64,000 nt of DNA from a virus (IMGVR_UViG_2671180676_000004:2122-66121), one strand, 5' to 3'; positions 2,890 to 14,667 are shown, counted from the stretch's first letter. The notes: generated from the letters alone by a model not told the origin. Program-made: numbers and translations.

Positions 2890-3366
2890 ATGAATACAGC
2901 CCTTTCCATCATCGACGATGCCAACTCAAACACTGCTATCGACTATCGGCAGGAAATGAACGTCATCCACGAAATTGTGGCCGAGTGCGAGAAAGAGATC
3001 GCCTTCATGTATCAGGTACACGACTTCGTTTATGGCGACGAACGCCACAACATGATTAATCGCCTGCTGAGACTAAACCATCGACCAGATGAAGATCGCT
3101 CGCGTTTAAATCGAGGTTGGTTGGATAAAGTCGATCTGGAATGGGTGAAACAGAATATTTGGGCCGAGTACTGGAGGAAGGTCACGGACATGACTAACGT
3201 TTTGCTGATCATGCCAGCTTCCCGTCGTGACGAGTGGTATGAGCAATTTATCGAGGGCAAGCAGGAAGTCATCAAAACTGACAGAACCGGCTATCAGATG
3301 AAGGTTAAAGAGTTCGTTGGTGTACCTGAGTTCAAAGTGGATACAGACATCCCTACGATGGCTTGA
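2890..3366 (+). CDS. hypothetical protein
   Basis: 158-aa ORF; convergent with hsdR, only about 58 bp between the stops. Confidence 0.4.
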   Translation: MNTALSIIDDANSNTAIDYRQEMNVIHEIVAECEKEIAFMYQVHDFVYGDERHNMINRLLRLNHRPDEDRSRLNRGWLDKVDLEWVKQNIWAEYWRKVTDMTNVLLIMPASRRDEWYEQFIEGKQEVIKTDRTGYQMKVKEFVGVPEFKVDTDIPTMA

Positions 3367-3424
3367 TCTGACAGCTATCTGCAAATTGCACAGATATCTG
3401 CCAGATCTGGTTCAGATTAATACA

Positions 3425-6400
3425 CTATATCTGCCCACCTACTCCTTTGAACTTTTCAATAAACGTGACGATTTTCTGGAAAACCGTCTGTTTTTTCGTT
3501 TTATATTGCGGGTTTAACGGACTAAGTTTTGGTAATGTCTCGTTTAATTCTGTGCCATTTTCGGTGGCGTATTCGCGTTTTAAAGACGTGCGAATATAGC
3601 GTTTCGCCGCCTCTTCATTGAGATTTTCTTCTTTAATCAACGCTTCTGCTTCACGTAGCTGTTCGTGTTGAGCAAAGGTAAAGAACGCGTCAATGATGCT
3701 GGCTTTGTCTGGTAAATCATCCAGGTTCGTTTGCTGAATAAAATCGACCACCAGGCCCTCTTTAGCACGGTTCCCTAGGCTTGAACGAATTAAGCGTTTG
3801 ACCTCTTCGATCATTTCGCCCTTGCCTTTATTTTGTCTGTTGTGTTCGAAAATCAGTCCAAGGATATAATCCAGGTTTATTTCCTGAGACTTCAGCAAAT
3901 CGACCTCAAAAACTACGTCATCCCAGTCAGTGGTTGATTTCTCTTTTTTCTCAGCTTCTTTCTCACGGCGCTGCCAGTCGCGAATATCGTTATAGGCAGA
4001 ACGATAATCCTGAATCTTGCGATCAGCAGGGAGACGAATTGTTTGCAATTCAGCGAACTTTTCATCATCCACATAATGTTCTGCTTTGAATTTTTCTACC
4101 GCAACAGGATCGCTAAGATCGATTTGTTGCAGGGCTTTTAGCGTGGCAAATTCATCATAGTTTTGCAGGATGTTCTCGGCACGCAGGTATTCGCCAAACA
4201 GTTTAACGAAGTCTTTCTTCTCTTTTTCACTTTCAATACTGGCAGGGTCAGGGAACCGTTGTTCCAGTTCTGAAACTACTGCCATAAAGCCGCGTTTAGC
4301 TTCACCTGTAGCAGCATCAGTAAAGCCTTCCATATACTCTGCATAACTCTTTTCTAACACTACATTTTTGGTGTTTTTGTCACCAAACAGCGTTATGGCA
4401 TCGATGGTTGAGCGTTCCAGATCGCGGAAAGTGACGATATTACCGAAGGTTTTAGTCGCGTCATAAATGCGGTTGGTACGGGAAAATGCCTGCATCAGGC
4501 CGTGAAAACGCAAGTTTTTATCGACGAATAGCGTGTTTAATGTTGGAGCATCGAAGCCGGTTAAAAACATCCCCACGACGATTAACAAGTCAACATCCTG
4601 ATTTTTAACCCGCTGAGCCAGGTCCCGATAGTAGTTCTGAAAACCCTTGCTATCAGTGCTGAAATTCATTTGAAAATGGTCGTTATACTCACGAATTGCA
4701 GCGTCCAGAAACTCTTTAGCACTGCTGTCCATTGCACTGGTATCAAAAGATTCATCGGATATTTCACCAATGGCATTTTGTTCTTCATTAGCGGCAAAGG
4801 AGAAGATTGTCGCAACACGCAGTGGTTTATAGGTAGCAGATTTATTAGCTGCTTCCTCTTGTAACCGTTTAAACGTCGCGTAATAGGCTTTCGCGGCATC
4901 CACGCTGCTCACTGCCAACATAGCATTAAAACCTTTTGAGCCAGGGAAGGTACGGTGGGTTTTCTGGCGGAAATTATTCAGAATATATTGCGTGATTTCC
5001 TGAATACGCATGGGATGAAGAAACGCCTGCTGATTTTCAGCCGCACTCAGTTTTTTCTCGTCAGTTTCTGTCTCTAAAGACTTAAACTGTGGCCGCACAT
5101 CGTTGTAGTCCACCTTGAATTTGAGCACTTTTTCGTCACGAATCGCATCGGTAATTACATACGAATGCAATTCACGACCAAATACGCTGGCGGTTGTTTC
5201 TGAGCCTAAGGCGTTTTCCGGGAAAATAGGGGTGCCGGTAAAACCAAACTGATAATAACGTTTGAATTTCTTCTTCAGGTTTTTCTGCGCTTCTCCAAAC
5301 TGGCTGCGGTGGCATTCATCAAATATAAACACCACTTGCTGATTATATACAGGCAGGTCGCTTTCTGCTTTCATCAGGTTATTGAGTTTCTGAATAGTAG
5401 TGACGATAATTTTGTTATCGTCCTTATCCAGATTTCGTTTAAGGCCTGCGGTATTTTCCGAGCCGTTGACGCTGTCTGGCGAAAAACGCTGATATTCCTT
5501 CATGGTCTGGTAATCGAGGTCTTTCCTGTCGACCACAAAGAAGACTTTATCAATAAAGTCCAGCTCTGTTGCCAGACGCGCGGCTTTAAAGCTGGTGAGG
5601 GTTTTACCAGAACCGGTAGTGTGCCAGATATACCCACCGCTTTCCGGTTTTGACCAGTTCTTCGCTGTAAAGGAACTCTTAATTTTCCACAGAATGCGCT
5701 CGGTGGCGGCAATCTGGTACGGTCGCATCACCAGTAGCGTCTGACTACTGTCAAAAACGCTGTAGTTCACCAGAACATTCAGCAGAGTATGTTTCTGGAA
5801 AAAGGTAGCGGTAAAGTCTTTGAGGTCTTTAATCAGCGTGTTGTCTGATTTCGCCCAATTCATGGTGAAGTCAAAACTGTTTTTATCGCGCTTTGTGGTG
5901 TTGGCAAAATAACGGGTATCAGTGCCGTTGGAAATGACGAACAGCTGCAGATACTTAAACAGGGAATTTTCGCTGTTAAAACTCTCTTTACTGTAACGAT
6001 GTATCTGGTTGAAAGCCTCACGAATCGCCACCCCGCGTTTTTTTAGTTCGATTTGCACCAGCGGTAAACCATTAACCAGGATCGTGACGTCATAACGGTT
6101 AGCATGAGAACCCGTCTGTTCAAACTGCTGGATAATCTGCACCTTATTGCGCATGAGATTCTTTTTATCTATCAAATAGATGTTCTCAAGTCGCCCGTCG
6201 TCAAAAATAAAGTCGCAGATATAGTCGATATGGATTTTACGGGTTTTATCCAGAATACCATCGCTGGGGTTGTCCAGATACTGCTCCGTGAAGCGCCGCC
6301 ACTCGCTGTCATTAAACATCACACCATTGAGGCTCTGAAGCTGTTCCCGAACATTGGACAGCATTGCCGACTGTGATTTTACGGAAATAAATTCATAACC

Positions 6401-6541
6401 CTGATTCCGCAGGTCCTGAATCAGTTCACGTTCCAGGTCCGATTCGCTCTGGTAGCTGTCGCTTGTTTGCTCAGCTTTGATGTACTTATCAAGGACGATA
6501 AAGTTATTGGATTCAGCAATGGTGTGTGTTTGATGAGTCAT
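3425..6541 (-). CDS. hsdR: type I restriction enzyme R subunit (type IC, EcoR124I-like)
   Basis: 1038-aa ORF; SF2 helicase motifs (TGSGKT Walker A, DECH box); last gene of minus-strand M-S-R order; length typical of type IC HsdR. Confidence 0.9.
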
Positions 6542-6663
6542 AGCGCATCCTTTGTGCCGCCTGGCAAGAGCCGGAAGGGCGTTAAGAGTGACTTCCGGCG
6601 CGTAAAAAAATAGTCTATATACTGACCGGGTGTTAAGGTGGCCCGATCGGTAGCAATGGTCAA

Positions 6664-7902
6664 TTAATTACTGACAGTTTCAGGTTTCGGGAAACTGAAC
6701 AGTAAATCACGGTAGTATTCGTATTGTTTCTGGCGCAACTCGATTTCACGCGGGAGACCTTCGGTGATGGAGTTGGTCAGGGTGTCGAATTTATCGAGCA
6801 GAGCAGATATTCGCTCTTGTTTCTGTTTATCAGGCAATGGCACTGGTAATGTTTTTATAATATCTGCATTCAAGTTACTGACCGACCCGCTATTGATTTT
6901 ACTTTCCCAATAATTTTTCACCTTTTTTGATGAAAGATAGTGATACAGATAATCAGCATTTAATTTTTCACCAAAATTGCTGATTGATGCCCATCCATCA
7001 TGGATAGCTCCGGTTATCCTTAAAATATATGGTCTGCCAAAGCTCATAGAGTTAGAAATGACGAAATCACCGGGGTTCAAGATTCGCGATTTTTGGGCAC
7101 CCTCTGCAGTTATTTTTTGTAAGGTTTTGTCAATGTATTTAGAGCCGGGGATAGTATCTCCGATTTTAATCCATGGGATACCATTTCCTTGTTCAGTAAG
7201 ATAATTAACAATTGGCCTGGGGGATGCCCCACGTTGTATTTTGGCTACTTCTCCCAATGCCTTCCACTCAACCTCACCCTCTTTAAAACTCAGCAACTGG
7301 TCGCGATAGTAGTTGTACTGTTTTTTACGCATGTTAAGCTCAGCGGTAAGCTCAGCGGTAAGTGCAGTAAACTTATCCAGAATCCGAACAATTTCAGACT
7401 GGATGGCAAGGGATTTTCCCGGGGCGCTGGGACAAGGGATGGGTATTTGATAGTTTAAAATTGCATCTTTACTGCCTCGAGGCATCTTTGCCCCTTTAGC
7501 GTGCTGCATACTGTAAGAAAAAAATGAATCCGACGATAATGCATAGTAGAGATATTCTGGACTAATAATTTTTTTACAGTCTGCTAAAATGCGTATAGCA
7601 AGGACATCACCACTGCACCCGCCATTATTCTCCGCCATCCAAACTTTCTTTAAATATGGGCGAATATTACCTAAAAGAATATCACCTGGCTCATAGGCAG
7701 TTAAACGTGCCGTATTAGGCTGATAGGTGGCGTCAATGCGACCGCCTTTATCAGCAAGGAGATTATCAACGCCAACGAATGAAGTGGCATCAAGTTTATC
7801 AGCATCAACTTTGGTTGTTGAATACCCGGCGATATCGCCCACTGCTTTCCACTCAACCTCAACCCCATCCAGCAATTTTTCCAGATAACTCAACTCGCTC
7901 AT
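6664..7902 (-). CDS. hsdS: type I restriction-modification specificity subunit (type IC)
   Basis: 412 aa; two target-recognition domains separated by conserved central region containing TAELTAEL and followed by conserved C-terminal region ending [13 protein letters not shown]; start overlaps hsdM stop. Confidence 0.85.
7337..7360. repeat. 12-bp tandem duplication (2 copies) encoding TAEL-TAEL in hsdS central region
   Basis: AGCTCAGCGGTA repeated at 7337-7348 and 7349-7360. Confidence 0.85.
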
Positions 7903-9461
7903 TTCTGCACCTCGCAGCCTTCAATTTCAGCCACAATCGCATCAATATCTTTACGCAACTGGTCGATTTTGCTGACCGTGGTTTTCAGCTCTGCATTCAA
8001 CTCAGCGATATCGATAATTTCGCGAGTATCTTTCACTTCAACATAGCTGCTCACCGACAGGTTATAGTCATTAGCAACAACAGTCTCAAACGCAACAGAT
8101 TTCGCCAGATGAGCAACATCTTCCTTGCTGGCAAATACCTGCATAATTTTTTCTATATGGGCATCGGTCAGAATGTTGTTGTTAGTCTCTTTTTTGAACA
8201 GTTCGCTGGCATCAATAAACTGAACTTTGGTATCCGTTTTATGTTTAGACAGCACCAGAATATTGACGGCAATGGTGGTGCCAAAGAACAGGTTCGGTGC
8301 CAGTGAAATCACGGTTTCGACATAGTTATTGTCAACCAGATACTGACGGATTTTCTGCTCCGCGCCGCCACGGTAAAAAATGCCCGGGAAGCAGACAATC
8401 GCAGCACGACCTTTGGCAGAAAGATAGTTCAGCGCATGTAATACAAACGCAAAGTCAGCTTTGGATTTGGGGGCCAGAACGCCAGCCGGGGCAAAACGTT
8501 CATCGTTAATCAGCGTCGGGTCATCGCTGCCAATCCATTTCACCGAATACGGCGGGTTAGAAACGATGGCATCAAACGGTTTTTCATCTCTGAAGTGCGG
8601 CTCAGTCAGCGTATTGCCCAGCTTGATATCAAACTTGTCGTAGTTGATGTTGTGCAAAAACATGTTCATACGCGCCAGGTTATAGGTCGTATGGTTGATC
8701 TCCTGACCGAAAAAGCCTTCTTCGATGATGTGGTCATCGAACTGCTTTTTCGCCTGCAACAACAGCGAACCGGAACCTGCTGCCGGGTCGTAGATTTTGT
8801 TAACGTGGGTCTGGCCGTGCATTGCCAATTGTGCAATCAGCTTAGAGACGTGCTGCGGTGTAAAGAACTCGCCGCCTGACTTACCAGCATTCGCGGCATA
8901 GTTAGAAATCAGGAACTCATAGGCATCGCCGAACAGGTCAATCTGATGTTCGTTGAAGTCACCAAGTTTTAACCCTTCAACCCCTTTCAGAACCGCAGCC
9001 AGGCGGGCATTTTTATCTTTAACGGTGTTACCCAGGCGGTTACTGGTGGTATCGAAATCAGCAAACAAACCTTTGATGTCAGCTTCTGAAGGATAACCGT
9101 AAGCAGAACTTTCGATAGCAACGAAGATGCTGTTTAAATCTGCGTTCAGTCTGTCATTGGTATTTGCTTTCGCCGCTACGTTGCAGAAAAGCTGACTGGG
9201 GTAGATGAAGTAGCCTTTAGTTTTGATGGCATCGTCTTTAATGTCATCAGTAATTACGCTGTCATCCAGTTTCGCATAACAGATACTGTCATCACCGGCT
9301 TCAATATAGCTGGAAAAATTTTCGCTGATAAAACGGTAGAAAAGTGCGCCCAGAACGTATTGCTTAAAATCCCATCCATCGACCGAACCCCTGACATCGT
9401 TAGCAATTTGCCAGATTTGACGATGAAGCTCTGCACGTTGTTGAATACTTGTCATTTTCAT
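7899..9461 (-). CDS. hsdM: type I restriction-modification DNA methyltransferase subunit
   Basis: 520 aa; N6-adenine methyltransferase motifs (NPPY at the catalytic site, AdoMet-binding DPAAGSGS); first gene of operon. Confidence 0.9.
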
Positions 9462-10587
9462 CCACTTATTTCAGGCTTATGTAATTGGCGGTGATTCTAC
9501 AGCAACTTGGATGCTTTAGCAGTTCGGACATTAGGCAACGAATGACCTAATTAGAGCTTTTTGGAAAAGCGGTATTGTCGGTGCGATGATAGCTATGTTT
9601 GGGTGCGCGATGGTGCAATACAATGACGGTGAAAAGGTAAGCATCCAGTCTGATGGCTGGTATGGGCTGGATAGCCTGCAAAAAACCGCAGATAAAGCCT
9701 GTCAGCAATATGGAAAGTCTAAAGCCGTATATCAGCATAGCGCGAACGCTAATCCACATCTCGCGCCCGGCACGGGCGTTCAGAACACTATTTGGAAATG
9801 CGAACCATAACGCAGGTTGGCTTTTTACATCTTGGGCCGAATACTGATTCCGCGCTAAGTTGTTTGTGCGGAAGTGACACTGTGGAGCTTAGAAATAGTA
9901 AATACTGGTGGGCAACAAATTGAGCCTTCACACGCTCACCAGCACACACAAAAAATGGTTAAACAGCAAGGGAATTAATATCTCATCGCGACATTAAATA
10001 AGCCAGCGCACGCCTCTGTTTATCACTGACTTGAAAAACCATATCAGAACCACGATGAAGACAATCGCCAGCACTTGGCTAAGAACAGGCGCATTTAAAA
10101 ATGCACTTAGAAACTGAAAAAATACAATCATCAGGGTAATCCTCGTCTAATGTAAAGCTGTGTGCTCTCACGTTGACGTAGAAACCCAACCTCTATATAG
10201 TTGGATTCGGTGAAAGAAAGTCGTTAACGTGAACTTACGGCACATGTTTTCGGTATAAAAATCAGGGAACTGTGAATTCCTTGATGTAGTTGGGGCCTGT
10301 AATGCAGGCCCTATCTATTAATGTCATGATTACATCTCAAATTTTCTCCTTATCATTATTATTTAATAAAATTCAATTAATATAATATCCATTTCCTGTG
10401 TGTGCAAACACAGTATGAGGAAAATGGCCCCGTTGCAAGTGCATAACTTTGTGGATAACTCTGAAGGCGAATTTACATTTCGGCGCACCGCAAGCCAGAT
10501 AAGCTGTGCGCAAAAAGCAATGGGGTGAGAAAAAAACTTTGAAGATATTGCGGCGACTAAATAATAGCCGTTATTCAATTATTCTGG

Positions 10588-10851
10588 ATGGGATTTAATA
10601 TGAACGAATGGAACATAGCAGCCAAAAGCCAGGAAGAAAGGAATAAAGTTAACGTTGACCTGGCTGCCAGGGGGGTTGCCTACAAAGAGCGATTGAACAT
10701 ACCCGTCATAGCGGAACAGGTAGCCCGTGAGCAACCTGAGAACCTGCGCACCTATTTCATGGAACGGCTACGGCACTACCGGCAGTTAAGCCTCCTGCTG
10801 CCAAAAGGAAACGATCCGGTATATCAGAAAGAAGATATAGCCAAAAAATAA
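10588..10851 (+). CDS. hypothetical small protein
   Basis: 87-aa ORF (alternative ATG at 10600) directly upstream of UmuD'-like gene; no family recognised. Confidence 0.3.
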
Positions 10852-10949
10852 CGCGCCACCAGGCGAGCGCAAAGCATCGCGCTATTGCACACTTCAAGCA
10901 TCTTTAATGTATACTGTATGGATAAACAGTACTCTGAGGTGAAAACGCT

Positions 10950-11339
10950 ATGGGCTTCCCTTCTCCTGCGGCGGATTATGCTGAGAGTCGTATTTCTCTT
11001 GATCAGCAGATAATTAGACATCCTTCAGCGACCTACTTCTTGAGGGCAGCTGATAGTCATCATCGTGAGGGAATATTACAGGGTGCATTGCTGGTGGTCG
11101 ATTCCTCACTTACCCCGGTTGATGGTTCTCTGCTTGTATGCGCTCTGGATGGGGAATATCGCGTAAAAAGATACCGGAAGTATCCACGTCAGCATCTGGA
11201 GGATTTGAGAACCGGTAAGAAGGAAGCATTGCCAAAGGATGACGATGGATGCACGGGCAGCAATGCCGTGTTTGGTGTGATCACTCACATTATCAACGAC
11301 GCAAGAAGTGGCGAGTTTGATGATTGTCCCGTGATGTAG
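10950..11339 (+). CDS. UmuD'-like S24-family peptidase, naturally lacking the N-terminal cleavable segment
   Basis: 129 aa beginning M-GFPSPAADY, the sequence that follows the Cys24-Gly25 self-cleavage site in E. coli UmuD; candidate Ser (ADSH) and Lys (RVKRY) dyad positions retained; no umuC partner adjacent. Confidence 0.6.
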   Translation: MGFPSPAADYAESRISLDQQIIRHPSATYFLRAADSHHREGILQGALLVVDSSLTPVDGSLLVCALDGEYRVKRYRKYPRQHLEDLRTGKKEALPKDDDGCTGSNAVFGVITHIINDARSGEFDDCPVM

Positions 11340-11375
11340 GAGAACTGATTAGGCGGTGCAATGCACCGCCTTTTA

Positions 11376-12476
11376 TCACACTGCGCGGAATGCGATCTCG
11401 CCAGGTATTACTTCGCCTTGCCAATACATTTGGGCAGCAACGCGATCTGCGAGGTCACGATAAATAGCCGTAAATTCGCTATCTGGACGACTAATAACGG
11501 TTGGTGTTCCGTTATCCAGATCTTCACGAAGAGAGATATGAAGTGGCATTTGGCCTAACAACTGCGTGTTGTATTTCTCGGCCAGTTTCTGTGCGCCACC
11601 GGTGCCAAAAATTGGCTCGTGATGACCGCAGTTACTGCAAATATGCACACTCATGTTTTCGACGATACCCAGTACCGGCACTTCGACTTTTTCGAACATC
11701 ACAATGCCTTTCTTCGCATCGATCAGCGCGATGTCTTGCGGCGTAGTTACCACAACCGCACCAGTTACAGGAATGTTCTGCGCCAGCGTCAACTGAATAT
11801 CACCAGTGCCCGGCGGCATATCGAGAACGAGATAGTCCAGATCAGGCCATAGAGTTTCCTGCAACATCTGCATCAGCGCCTTGCTGGCCATCGGTCCACG
11901 CCACACCATTGCATTGTCGTCGGTGACCAGATAACCAATAGAGTTGGTTGCCAGGCCATGAGACATGATAGGTGCCATGTGAGTACCGTCCGGTGAGGTT
12001 GGACGTTGGTTTTCCGCGCCCAGCATGGTTGGAATTGATGGACCATAGATATCGGCATCCAAAATACCAACTTTCGCACCTTCAGCAGCCAACGCCAGTG
12101 CCAGGTTTACCGCCGTGGAGGATTTACCCACGCCGCCCTTGCCTGAGCTGACGGCGATAATGTTCTTAACGCCATTAATGCCTGGTTGGTTTTTGACGCG
12201 CTTAAGCGTGGCAATGTTGTACGACAGCTTCCAGTCAATAGCCTTTGCGCCAGTGATACGGAGCAGATCACCACTACATTGCTCTTTCAGGTCTTCAAAA
12301 GGCTTATTCCACACGAAAGGCATGATTAGTTCGACATGCAGTGTGTCATCCATCAACGCAACATGGTGTAACGCTTTAAGCGTAGTCAGGTTGTGTTTCA
12401 GGGTTGGGTGCTGAAAATTAGCCAGCGTACCGGCTACCATTGCTCTCAGGGCATCCGGCGATTTGGACTCGCTCAT
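11376..12476 (-). CDS. apbC: Fe-S cluster carrier ATPase ApbC/Mrp
   Basis: 366 aa; P-loop GKGGVGKS; CxxC pair; divergent from metG as in Escherichia chromosomes. Confidence 0.9.
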   Translation of the reverse strand: MSESKSPDALRAMVAGTLANFQHPTLKHNLTTLKALHHVALMDDTLHVELIMPFVWNKPFEDLKEQCSGDLLRITGAKAIDWKLSYNIATLKRVKNQPGINGVKNIIAVSSGKGGVGKSSTAVNLALALAAEGAKVGILDADIYGPSIPTMLGAENQRPTSPDGTHMAPIMSHGLATNSIGYLVTDDNAMVWRGPMASKALMQMLQETLWPDLDYLVLDMPPGTGDIQLTLAQNIPVTGAVVVTTPQDIALIDAKKGIVMFEKVEVPVLGIVENMSVHICSNCGHHEPIFGTGGAQKLAEKYNTQLLGQMPLHISLREDLDNGTPTVISRPDSEFTAIYRDLADRVAAQMYWQGEVIPGEIAFRAV

Positions 12477-12633
12477 CCCGTCTCCTTTATTTTAATTTGC
12501 GCAATTGTCGCCTTGTAGTGTACTCCAGCTACGACATTTAATCATTTATGAGAAATGCTGTTATCACATGGCAGACATAAGGCCATTTTGTTACTATCAA
12601 GCCCCTTTTCACTACAAAGAAGTAATGCCTACT

Positions 12634-14667
12634 ATGACCCAAGTCGCGAAGAAAATTCTGGTGACGTGCGCGCTGCCGTACGCTAACGGCTCAATCCACC
12701 TCGGCCATATGCTGGAGCACATCCAGGCTGATGTCTGGGTTCGTTACCAGCGAATGCGCGGCCACGAGGTTAATTTCATCTGTGCCGACGATGCCCACGG
12801 TACGCCGATCATGCTGAAAGCACAGCAGCTTGGTATCACACCGGAGCAGATGATTGGCGAAATGAGTCAGGAACACCAGACTGATTTCGCAGGCTTTAAC
12901 ATCAGCTATGACAACTATCACTCGACGCACAGCGAAGAGAACCGTCAGTTGTCTGAGCTTATCTATACTCGCCTGAAAGAGAACGGTTTTATTAAAAACC
13001 GCACTATCTCTCAGTTGTACGACCCGGAAAAAGGCATGTTCCTGCCGGATCGTTTTGTAAAAGGCACCTGCCCGAAATGTAAAGCGCCAGATCAATACGG
13101 CGATAACTGTGAAGTCTGCGGCGCAACATATAGCCCGACTGAATTGATCGAGCCGAAATCGGTGGTTTCTGGCGCTACCCCGGTAATGCGTGATTCCGAA
13201 CACTTCTTCTTTGATCTACCTTCTTTCAGCGAAATGTTGCAGGCATGGACCCGCAGCGGCGCGTTGCAGGAGCAGGTGGCGAACAAAATGCAGGAATGGT
13301 TTGAATCCGGCCTGCAACAGTGGGATATATCCCGCGATGCGCCTTACTTCGGTTTTGAAATTCCGAACGCGCCGGGCAAATATTTCTACGTCTGGCTGGA
13401 CGCGCCGATTGGCTACATGGGTTCCTTCAAGAATCTGTGCGACAAGCGCGGCGATACCACCAGCTTCGATGAATACTGGAAGAAAGACTCCACCGCCGAG
13501 CTGTACCACTTCATCGGTAAAGATATTGTTTACTTCCACAGCCTGTTCTGGCCTGCCATGCTGGAAGGCAGCAACTTCCGCAAGCCGACCAACCTGTTTG
13601 TTCATGGCTATGTGACGGTGAACGGCGCGAAGATGTCCAAGTCTCGCGGCACCTTTATTAAAGCCAGCACCTGGCTGAATCATTTTGACGCTGACAGCCT
13701 GCGTTACTACTACACTGCGAAACTCTCTTCGCGTATTGATGATATCGATCTCAACCTGGAGGATTTCGTTCAGCGTGTGAATGCCGATATCGTTAACAAA
13801 GTGGTTAACCTGGCGTCCCGTAACGCTGGCTTTATCAATAAGCGTTTTGACGGTGTGCTGGCAGGCGAACTGGCTGACCCGCAACTGTATAAAACCTTCA
13901 CTGATGCTGCTGAAGTGATTGGTGAAGCATGGGAAAGCCGCGAATTTGGTAAAGCTATCCGTGAAATCATGGCATTGGCTGACCTGGCTAACCGCTATGT
14001 CGATGAACAGGCTCCGTGGGTGGTGGCGAAGCAGGAAGGACGCGATGCCGATCTGCAGGCGATTTGCTCTATGGGCATTAACCTGTTCCGCGTGCTGATG
14101 ACGTACCTGAAGCCGGTACTGCCGAAACTGACTGAACGTGCAGAAGCATTCCTGAATACAGAACTGACCTGGGATGGTATCCAGCAACCGCTGCTGGGCC
14201 ATAAAGTGAATCCGTTCAAGGCACTGTATAACCGCATCGATATGAAGCAGGTTGAAGCACTGGTGGAAGCATCCAAAGAAGAAGTGAAAGCCACAGCCGC
14301 ACCGGTAACTGGCCCACTGGCTGACGACCCGATTCAGGAAACTATCACCTTTGACGACTTCGCCAAAGTTGACCTGCGCGTGGCGCTGATTGAAAACGCA
14401 GAGTTTGTAGAAGGTTCTGACAAACTGCTTCGCCTGACGCTGGATCTCGGTGGTGAAAAGCGTAATGTCTTCTCAGGCATCCGTTCCGCTTATCCAGATC
14501 CACAGGCACTGATTGGTCGTCACACCATTATGGTGGCTAACCTGGCACCACGTAAAATGCGCTTCGGTATCTCTGAAGGCATGGTGATGGCTGCTGGCCC
14601 CGGCGGGAAAGATATCTTCCTGTTAAGCCCGGATGCTGGTGCTAAACCTGGCCACCAGGTTAAGTAA
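12634..14667 (+). CDS. metG: methionine--tRNA ligase
   Basis: 677 aa from ATG 12634 ([26 protein letters not shown]); HIGH-type and KMSKS motifs; zinc knuckle CPKC...CEVC; C-terminal tRNA-binding domain; intrinsic terminator at 14690-14713. Confidence 0.95.

Follow-up and report, generated by a model that had tools for sequence, protein, structure and literature searches.

The 64,000-nucleotide stretch of viral DNA analysed here (IMGVR_UViG_2671180676_000004:2122-66121, one strand read from 5' to 3', referred to as the window) contains three hsd genes between positions 3,425 and 9,461. The question raised by this locus is whether these genes form a complete restriction-modification (R-M) system, on what kind of element the system is carried, and whether its specificity is new. 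An earlier interpretation made from the DNA alone (the sequence-only reading) had described a complete type IC system with the M-S-R architecture of plasmid-borne systems and a possibly new specificity. In our study, the three genes were best explained as an intact R-M cassette of the EcoR124 family (type IC), carried as accessory cargo on an Escherichia coli SSU5-like phage-plasmid, and we give this reading a probability of about 0.9.

The hsdM, hsdS, and hsdR genes are all present on the minus strand and hence the order of transcription is M-S-R. Their coordinates and lengths (Table 1), as found in the list of open reading frames (ORFs) of the window, were in exact agreement with those of the sequence-only reading, and no internal stop codon was found in any of the three translations. 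The junction of hsdM and hsdS, which had been described as overlapping, was found to contain an overlap of 4 bp (..AAATGAGC..). The separate gap between hsdS and hsdR was of the predicted length, and the hairpin proposed within it was found on the coding strand from nucleotide 6599 to 6570.

Pfam, NCBIfam, and PADLOC agreed in the assignment of the genes to a type I system. HsdM matched TIGR00497 with 651.6 bits, together with PF02384 and PF12161, and HsdR matched TIGR00348 with 764.7 bits, together with PF04313, PF18766, and PF22679. The C-terminus of HsdR (residues 728-1031) matched PF12008 (EcoR124_C) with 241 bits. HsdM was found to be identical to EcoR124 HsdM (PDB 7bst_D) at 515 of the 520 residues (99%). 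HsdR was approximately 98% identical to EcoR124I HsdR (PDB 2w00) in an alignment covering all 1038 residues, the figure being derived from about 22 differences counted across the listed part of that alignment. The HsdM of the type IA system EcoKI showed a mere 66-bit match to the HsdM of the window. Previous studies reported that the similarity of HsdM and HsdR exceeds approximately 70% within a type I family and falls below approximately 30% between families (PMC10030836), and that a type IC HsdS both begins and ends in a conserved dimerisation region and contains central tandem tetra-amino-acid repeats, TAEL and similar (PMC3874165, PMC10030836). The traits of type IC found in the window were the similarity of HsdM and HsdR, the M-S-R order with hsdR set apart, the HsdS framework with its repeats, and the EcoR124_C domain, so that the description as a complete type IC system was borne out. 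The family was originally defined by the complementation of subunits and the cross-reactivity of antibodies, and with EcoR124I both would be expected given the identity of 98-99%. The motifs NPPY (residue 302) and DPAAGSG (residue 225) of HsdM were intact. In HsdR, the residues D151, E165, K167, and K220, the Walker A lysine K313, and the DECH motif at residue 408 were intact.

The N-terminal, central, and C-terminal conserved regions of HsdS were identical to those of EcoR124 HsdS (7bst_A), whereas both target recognition domains (TRDs) were unrelated to those of the same protein. Two TAEL repeats, as in the HsdS of the window, were also present in 106 of 120 HsdS relatives, and two such repeats are reported to give half-site spacing of the EcoR124I type (PMC3874165). 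The specificity of type IC systems is known to change by the exchange of TRDs between the conserved framework segments (PMC3874165). Sharing of the TRDs was counted among the top 120 HsdS matches. TRD1 recurred with 100% identity in dozens of further HsdS proteins of type IC, and 68 of the 120 shared TRD1 only, with a different TRD2. TRD2 was 98-100% identical in many others, and 30 of the 120 shared TRD2 only, with a different TRD1. The proposal of a new specificity was thereby weakened: both TRDs differ from those of EcoR124I, but each of them is found, up to 100% identical, in many type IC HsdS proteins. As TRD1 and TRD2 each occur in other HsdS proteins, the specificity is a re-assortment of existing modules. 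Neither TRD is novel, and the HsdS is at most a rare pairing of modules that already exist.

The whole HsdS (WP_061358308.1) was rare in a collection of 5.8 billion proteins, where one exact cluster and two clusters at 99% were found. The same pair of TRDs was present in protein P0002, which was 99% identical overall and occurred in E. coli chromosomal islands beside an Ag43-type autotransporter and IS66. Another relative, P0004, encoded on a 111.6-kb contig of K. pneumoniae, was 99% identical in TRD1 and 80% identical in TRD2. EcoR124 HsdS was the sole HsdS of this family in the PDB, and its TRDs differ; the names of the HsdS proteins in the protein collection were all generic ("restriction endonuclease subunit S"). 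GAA N6 RTCG, the sequence recognized by EcoR124I, is not the expected target, since neither TRD is related to those of that enzyme. No mapping of these TRDs to half-sites was found in the literature on E. coli type IC methylomes, and the type I systems of EC958, considered as a guide to the target, were set aside as members of other families.

Over the region of the cassette, the window matched pUTAK-6-1, a circular E. coli plasmid of 111,466 bp, with 100% identity. The backbone of the window was 95-98% identical to the SSU5-like phages CMS-2020a and Cyrano, and the flanks of the window were collinear with phage Cyrano. The part from nucleotide 20000 to 44000 shared 98.5% identity with Escherichia phage CMS-2020a; with SSU5 the identity was 81% over the structural genes from terminase to tail. 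Judged by the synteny and identity of the backbone, structural genes included, the whole window is assigned to an SSU5-like phage-plasmid. The R-M system itself is, by sequence comparison, a known and ordinary one, and can be regarded in practice as an allele of the EcoR124 prototype. We consider it as known because RefSeq already holds the sequence with the same annotation, because the proteins share 98-99% identity with the type IC enzyme that has been studied most and the TRDs are recycled, and because R-M systems on SSU5-like phage-plasmids have already been published; R-M and PrrC systems were reported in SSU5 clade J and in P1 phage-plasmids (bioRxiv 10.1101/2025.09.12.675607).

The limits of the cassette were found to be sharp. 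In hundreds of unrelated plasmids and P1-like phages the homology started exactly at the stop codon of hsdR (3425), and it ended at 9546-9548 or at 9560, approximately 85-100 bp upstream of hsdM. The homology to one copy located in a chromosome ended at 9467. The sequence CTGCTA-17-TAGAAT, read by eye upstream of hsdM, may serve as a promoter. On the other side, the homology with phage Cyrano stopped at 3370, and window 3371-10901 stands in for 5.85 kb of the Cyrano backbone. The sequence-only reading had placed a convergent gene (2890-3366) within 60 bp of hsdR. We found that it is convergent and ends 58 bp from the hsdR stop codon, but that it is a truncated pseudogene rather than a whole gene. 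In the annotation of pUTAK-6-1 it is a pseudogene lacking the C-terminus, whereas the DUF4942 gene of Cyrano, to which the remnant is 95.5% identical over 157 amino acids, is intact. The intact backbone counterpart is present at L002 3380-5065, and one plasmid record names it a putative DNA modification methylase; a Pfam scan of the 158-amino-acid remnant gave no match. Roughly 150 PLSDB plasmids, as estimated from the listing of matches, keep the DUF4942 gene intact. The gain of the cassette truncated this gene, and the acquisition of the R-M system therefore cost the element its DUF4942 gene.

A query spanning the left junction was covered to at least 80% by 48 PLSDB plasmids. Two of these, the sibling plasmids NZ_OW849379 and NZ_CP017847, were found to share both junctions with the window and to differ in both TRDs; within the cassette, the DNA homology to them broke solely at 6799-7248 and 7447-7842. 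As the junctions are shared but the TRDs differ, the TRDs have been exchanged in place after the insertion. The cassette thus entered the backbone by replacing DNA and truncating the DUF4942 gene, and the TRDs were swapped later between the conserved segments of the framework. No mobility genes or repeats were found at the ends of the cassette, and insertion sequence (IS) elements flanked it in some chromosomal contexts only. The type IC cassettes found at the DUF4942 locus in the window and in a Klebsiella SSU5-like phage (see below) point either to an old association, with an insertion that was followed by further deletion, or to repeated insertion at one locus. A scan of the flanking ORFs (2890-3366, 2115-2786, 1263-1832, 9586-9810, and others) with PADLOC, Pfam, and NCBIfam found no further defence genes.

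Table 1. Coordinates of the cassette, its parts, and its borders in the window.
Feature	Position	Strand	Basis
hsdM, type IC N6-adenine methyltransferase subunit, 520 amino acids	7899..9461	-	TIGR00497, PF02384, PF12161; identity to EcoR124 HsdM
hsdS, specificity subunit, 412 amino acids	6664..7902	-	two PF01420 stretches; EcoR124 framework with exchanged TRDs
hsdR, type IC restriction/translocase subunit, 1038 amino acids	3425..6541	-	TIGR00348, PF04313, PF18766, PF22679, PF12008
Upstream region of hsdM moving with the cassette, presumed hsdM-hsdS promoter region	9462..9560	-	homology limits in plasmids and P1-like phages
TRD1 (amino acids 20-158), expected reader of the 5' half-site	7429..7845	-	identity to other type IC HsdS
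TRD2 (amino acids 213-360), expected reader of the 3' half-site	6823..7266	-	identity to other type IC HsdS
TAELTAEL (amino acids 182-189), two tetra-amino-acid repeats, half-site spacing	7336..7359	-	translation
hsdS-hsdR spacer, 122 bp, candidate sigma-70 promoter and hsdR leader	6542..6663	-	promoter scan, no ORF
Stem-loop, 8-bp stem GCCGGAAG/CTTCCGGC, 14-nt loop	6570..6599	-	conserved across 25 leaders
Junction, 54 bp, from truncated backbone gene to hsdR stop codon	3371..3424		homology limits of Cyrano and of the cassette
5' remnant (158 amino acids) of a 561-amino-acid DUF4942 gene (putative DNA methylase)	2890..3366	+	comparison with Cyrano and pUTAK-6-1

The cassette was found to be widespread. 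It had a match in 1672 of 5426 complete E. coli genomes, 1144 of which had a place covering at least 80%, and it matched 1156 plasmids of PLSDB. The carriers were conjugative plasmids, P1-like and SSU5-like phage-plasmids, and chromosomal islands. In the P1-like phage vB_EcoM-673R5 (L003 5001-11145) the cassette was present between pmgS and phd-doc.

By homology to EcoR124I, two HsdM subunits and one HsdS subunit would form an M2S1 methyltransferase, predicted to methylate one adenine per strand of a bipartite target. TRD1 would read the 5' half-site and TRD2 the 3' half-site, with the two TAEL repeats giving a spacing of the EcoR124I type. The addition of HsdR (R2M2S1) would yield an ATP-driven translocating endonuclease, which cuts unmodified DNA far from the site. 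The hsdM and hsdS genes are probably coupled in translation by their overlap, and hsdR, which follows the spacer with its conserved stem-loop, probably has its own promoter. In EcoR124I, hsdR is reportedly transcribed from a separate promoter of its own. The system would modify the DNA of the phage-plasmid and restrict incoming unmodified phages and plasmids, and by protecting the lysogen it would therefore protect the phage-plasmid.

Among the alternatives, the one that survived best is that the main selected role of the cassette is the stabilisation of the phage-plasmid by post-segregational killing, or competition between elements, and not the defence of the host against lytic phages. The location on a low-copy phage-plasmid, the proximity to the phd-doc addiction module in the P1-like carriers, and the spread over many kinds of mobile element are consistent with such a role. 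However, the same cassette is also stably maintained in chromosomes, and type I systems, which undergo restriction alleviation, make poor addiction modules when compared with type II systems. Stabilisation is, moreover, compatible with defence and not exclusive of it, and we consider it unlikely to be the main role.

The spacer between hsdS and hsdR was examined for signals that may control hsdR. A candidate sigma-70 site, TTAACA-18-TATTTT, was present at 6636-6607, upstream of the stem-loop, and the 3' end of the stem-loop (GCCGGAAG-N14-CTTCCGGC) was found approximately 28 nt upstream of the ATG of hsdR. The fold of the whole spacer was no better than that of shuffled sequences (z = -0.98). 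Conservation of the stem was studied in 25 distinct leaders of the short-spacer form, which came from Escherichia, Klebsiella, Enterobacter, Erwinia, and others. In these leaders the stem was 94% paired, and the loop was free to vary and was deleted in one case. Several of the changes in the stem yielded G-U pairs on the sense strand, and two pairs were altered on both sides. The observed pairing and covariation were reached by none of 500 shuffles, and controls slid along the sequence were 26-57% paired. Because the leader sequences are related to each other, the covariation is suggestive and is no proof; it is suggestive of an RNA stem-loop on the sense strand. An intrinsic terminator was ruled out by the 14-nt loop, the lack of a T-run, and the lack of any entry in the terminator scan. 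The search of region 3300-11400 against Rfam, with E-values up to 1, gave no match.

We tentatively propose that the stem-loop is an RNA element of the sense strand, peculiar to type IC systems devoid of prrC, which would set the ratio of HsdR to HsdM/HsdS or the timing of HsdR synthesis; we hold this to be possible but rather doubtful. The stem-loop could stabilise the 3' end of the hsdMS transcript or partly terminate that transcript, or it could act as a structure in the leader of the hsdR mRNA. If true, such control would aid the safe establishment of the R-M system in a new host, which in EcoR124I has so far been ascribed to control of enzyme assembly (PMC12707154).

The same spacer bears on the possibility that the cassette is intact but functionally silent, or active as a methyltransferase only, for example if hsdR were poorly expressed or HsdR poorly assembled, so that it would be an epigenetic marker and not a restriction barrier. 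A strong hsdR promoter was not found in the promoter scan, and restriction by EcoR124I is reported to be limited at assembly, via an R1M2S intermediate (PMC12707154). Two observations weigh against our reading of an intact and working cassette. The promoter candidate of the spacer is weak, matching the consensus at 9 of 12 positions, and the region was not richer in promoter-like sites than shuffled sequences. In phage 673R5, hsdR and hsdM are annotated in several pieces and tblastn showed frame breaks in them; copies of the cassette may thus decay, unless these breaks are sequencing errors, and the possibly broken copies would suit a silent state. In the window, however, the three ORFs are of full length and all of the catalytic motifs checked are identical to those of the active prototype. 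The hsdR leader, which contains the stem-loop and a Shine-Dalgarno-like AGGA, is conserved from genus to genus, an argument for the maintenance of hsdR expression by selection. A silent cassette is accordingly an improbable explanation, and an intact cassette with a restriction function remains the favoured one.

The sequence-only reading had also placed the cassette between cargo genes of the element and apbC. We found that apbC is present on that side, but that hot (a homologue of the DNA polymerase III theta subunit, 10588-10851) and humD (10950-11339) intervene, and that this apbC is a plasmid paralogue. The apbC and metG genes (window 11376-14667) form a divergent pair arranged as on the chromosome. 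Both are normally chromosomal housekeeping genes, and the ApbC of the window matched the NCBIfam equivalog with 759 bits, so that the cassette could be taken as the edge of an element integrated beside a chromosomal apbC-metG pair. This is very hard to maintain, as the identical sequence occurs on a circular plasmid of 111 kb, the same apbC-metG pair is present in the genome of phage Cyrano, and the apbC of the window shared just 82-83% identity with the chromosomal gene in each of the 5426 complete E. coli genomes, whereas essentially all of the 220 plasmid places matching it showed an identity of at least 95%. The chromosomal-edge interpretation was refuted on these three grounds. The apbC and metG genes belong to the backbone of the phage-plasmid, and the R-M system is therefore not located at a boundary between element and chromosome.

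The length of the hsdS-hsdR spacer was surveyed in relatives of the HsdR N-terminus, taking the best 80 by similarity from each source, which makes both samples biased. Among 66 evaluable loci from species-representative genomes, the spacer was up to 200 bp in 8 and over 900 bp in 51, whereas among 73 evaluable loci from viral contigs it was up to 200 bp in 51 and over 900 bp in 22. The short spacer without prrC was thus commoner in viral contigs only, and the long form was commoner in species-representative genomes; this contrast may be a sampling effect. In all four long-spacer loci examined, a PrrC-like P-loop ORF of approximately 380-400 amino acids was present, its stop codon overlapping the start of hsdR, which is the prr arrangement. 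That the window holds such a prr-type locus (hsdM-hsdS-prrC-hsdR), a type IC system coupled to the PrrC anticodon nuclease for abortive infection, is practically out of the question despite the predominance of long spacers among the species-level relatives and the report of PrrC in SSU5 and P1 phage-plasmids (bioRxiv 10.1101/2025.09.12.675607), since the spacer sequence itself, with 122 bp and no ORF, refutes it: no gene is present in the spacer and prrC is therefore absent.

Several other features were observed around the cassette. A P1-like segment from upfM to hot (9811-10836) was 81% identical to P1 and adjoined humD (10901-11338, 85%); the P1 lxr gene was missing between the two. Window 9811-10593 was lacking in sibling plasmids, although these have both junctions of the cassette in common with the window. 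The presence of a P1-like segment beside the cassette implies that P1-like and SSU5-like phage-plasmids have exchanged DNA there. An ORF of 74 amino acids (9586-9810), without any family match, was found just past the hsdM-side end of the cassette, and the segment 9552-9810 was also present, at 88% identity and without hsdM, in plasmids of approximately 90-98 kb.

The genes on the left flank had been described as carrying a palindrome of the element. The palindrome AAACAAnTTGTTT was found at 13 sites in the window, with one mismatch allowed, against 0.5 expected, and this is most likely the palindrome that was meant. The sites were at 503, 1232, 14752, 14803, 16416, 17610, 18094, 18997, 19761, 28876, 28901, 58335, and 62363, mostly just upstream of backbone genes, and those at 503 and 1232 were indeed upstream of genes of the left flank. 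None was found between 1245 and 14751, and hence none in the R-M cassette, the P1-like segment, or the apbC/metG region. The palindrome probably serves the SSU5-like backbone as an operator or promoter element. At 2848-2891, a perfect inverted repeat of 16 nt, ATAATTGCACCATTAA-N12-TTAATGGTGCAATTAT, was present, with its end at the point where the DUF4942 remnant has its start codon. This repeat was rejected as the element palindrome since it did not recur in the window, and it may be a dedicated operator of the DUF4942 gene.

Few defence modules of E. coli are shared as widely as the EcoR124-type cassette, and the present locus illustrates that type IC specificity is re-assorted in place by the swapping of TRDs. 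In practice, work with E. coli strain UTAK-6 (assembly GCF_039911655.1) or with comparable phage-plasmids has to reckon with a predicted extra restriction barrier together with a predicted extra N6-methyladenine motif. Beyond correct annotation, the finding is of little consequence. Two modest leads are the conserved stem-loop of the hsdR leader, and the DUF4942 locus, which has taken up type IC cassettes in both the E. coli and the Klebsiella lineages of SSU5-like elements.

Among the known systems, EcoR124I and EcoR124II (plasmids R124 and R124/3; PDB 2w00, 7bst) are the closest in their traits. HsdR has 1038 and HsdM 520 amino acids in these systems as in the window, and EcoR124I shares the two TAEL repeats, the identical conserved regions of HsdS, the M-S-R order, and the short S-R spacer. 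It differs in its unrelated TRDs, and the carrier of EcoR124 is a conjugative IncF plasmid whereas here it is an SSU5-like phage-plasmid. EcoDXXI (TCA N7 RTTC) and the engineered TRD hybrids of EcoR124I and EcoDXXI are likewise type IC systems in which specificity is set by TRD exchange (PMC3874165), but EcoDXXI contains three TAEL repeats instead of the two found in the HsdS of the window. In the annotation of the P1 genome, P1 sequences flank the hsd loci of EcoDXXI and R124/3, which fits the presence of the cassette, with the same boundaries, in P1-like phages. The HsdM, HsdS, and HsdR of the EcoprrI/prr locus are homologous to those of the window, but prrC is embedded there between hsdS and hsdR, where the window has only the spacer with its stem-loop.

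The SSU5-like Klebsiella phage vB_KpnS_p4727 was found to carry a diverged type IC cassette (L005 3714-9935) at the same position of the backbone, following a TerB-like gene and a homologue of the ORF at 1263 and abutting a DUF4942 remnant. The remnant is of 62 amino acids in the Klebsiella phage and of 158 amino acids in the window, and the HsdS is only approximately 40% identical, the DNA approximately 80% identical, and the spacer shorter. HsdR and HsdM, in contrast, are 91 and 93% identical, respectively, and the arms of the spacer stem-loop are identical in the two elements.

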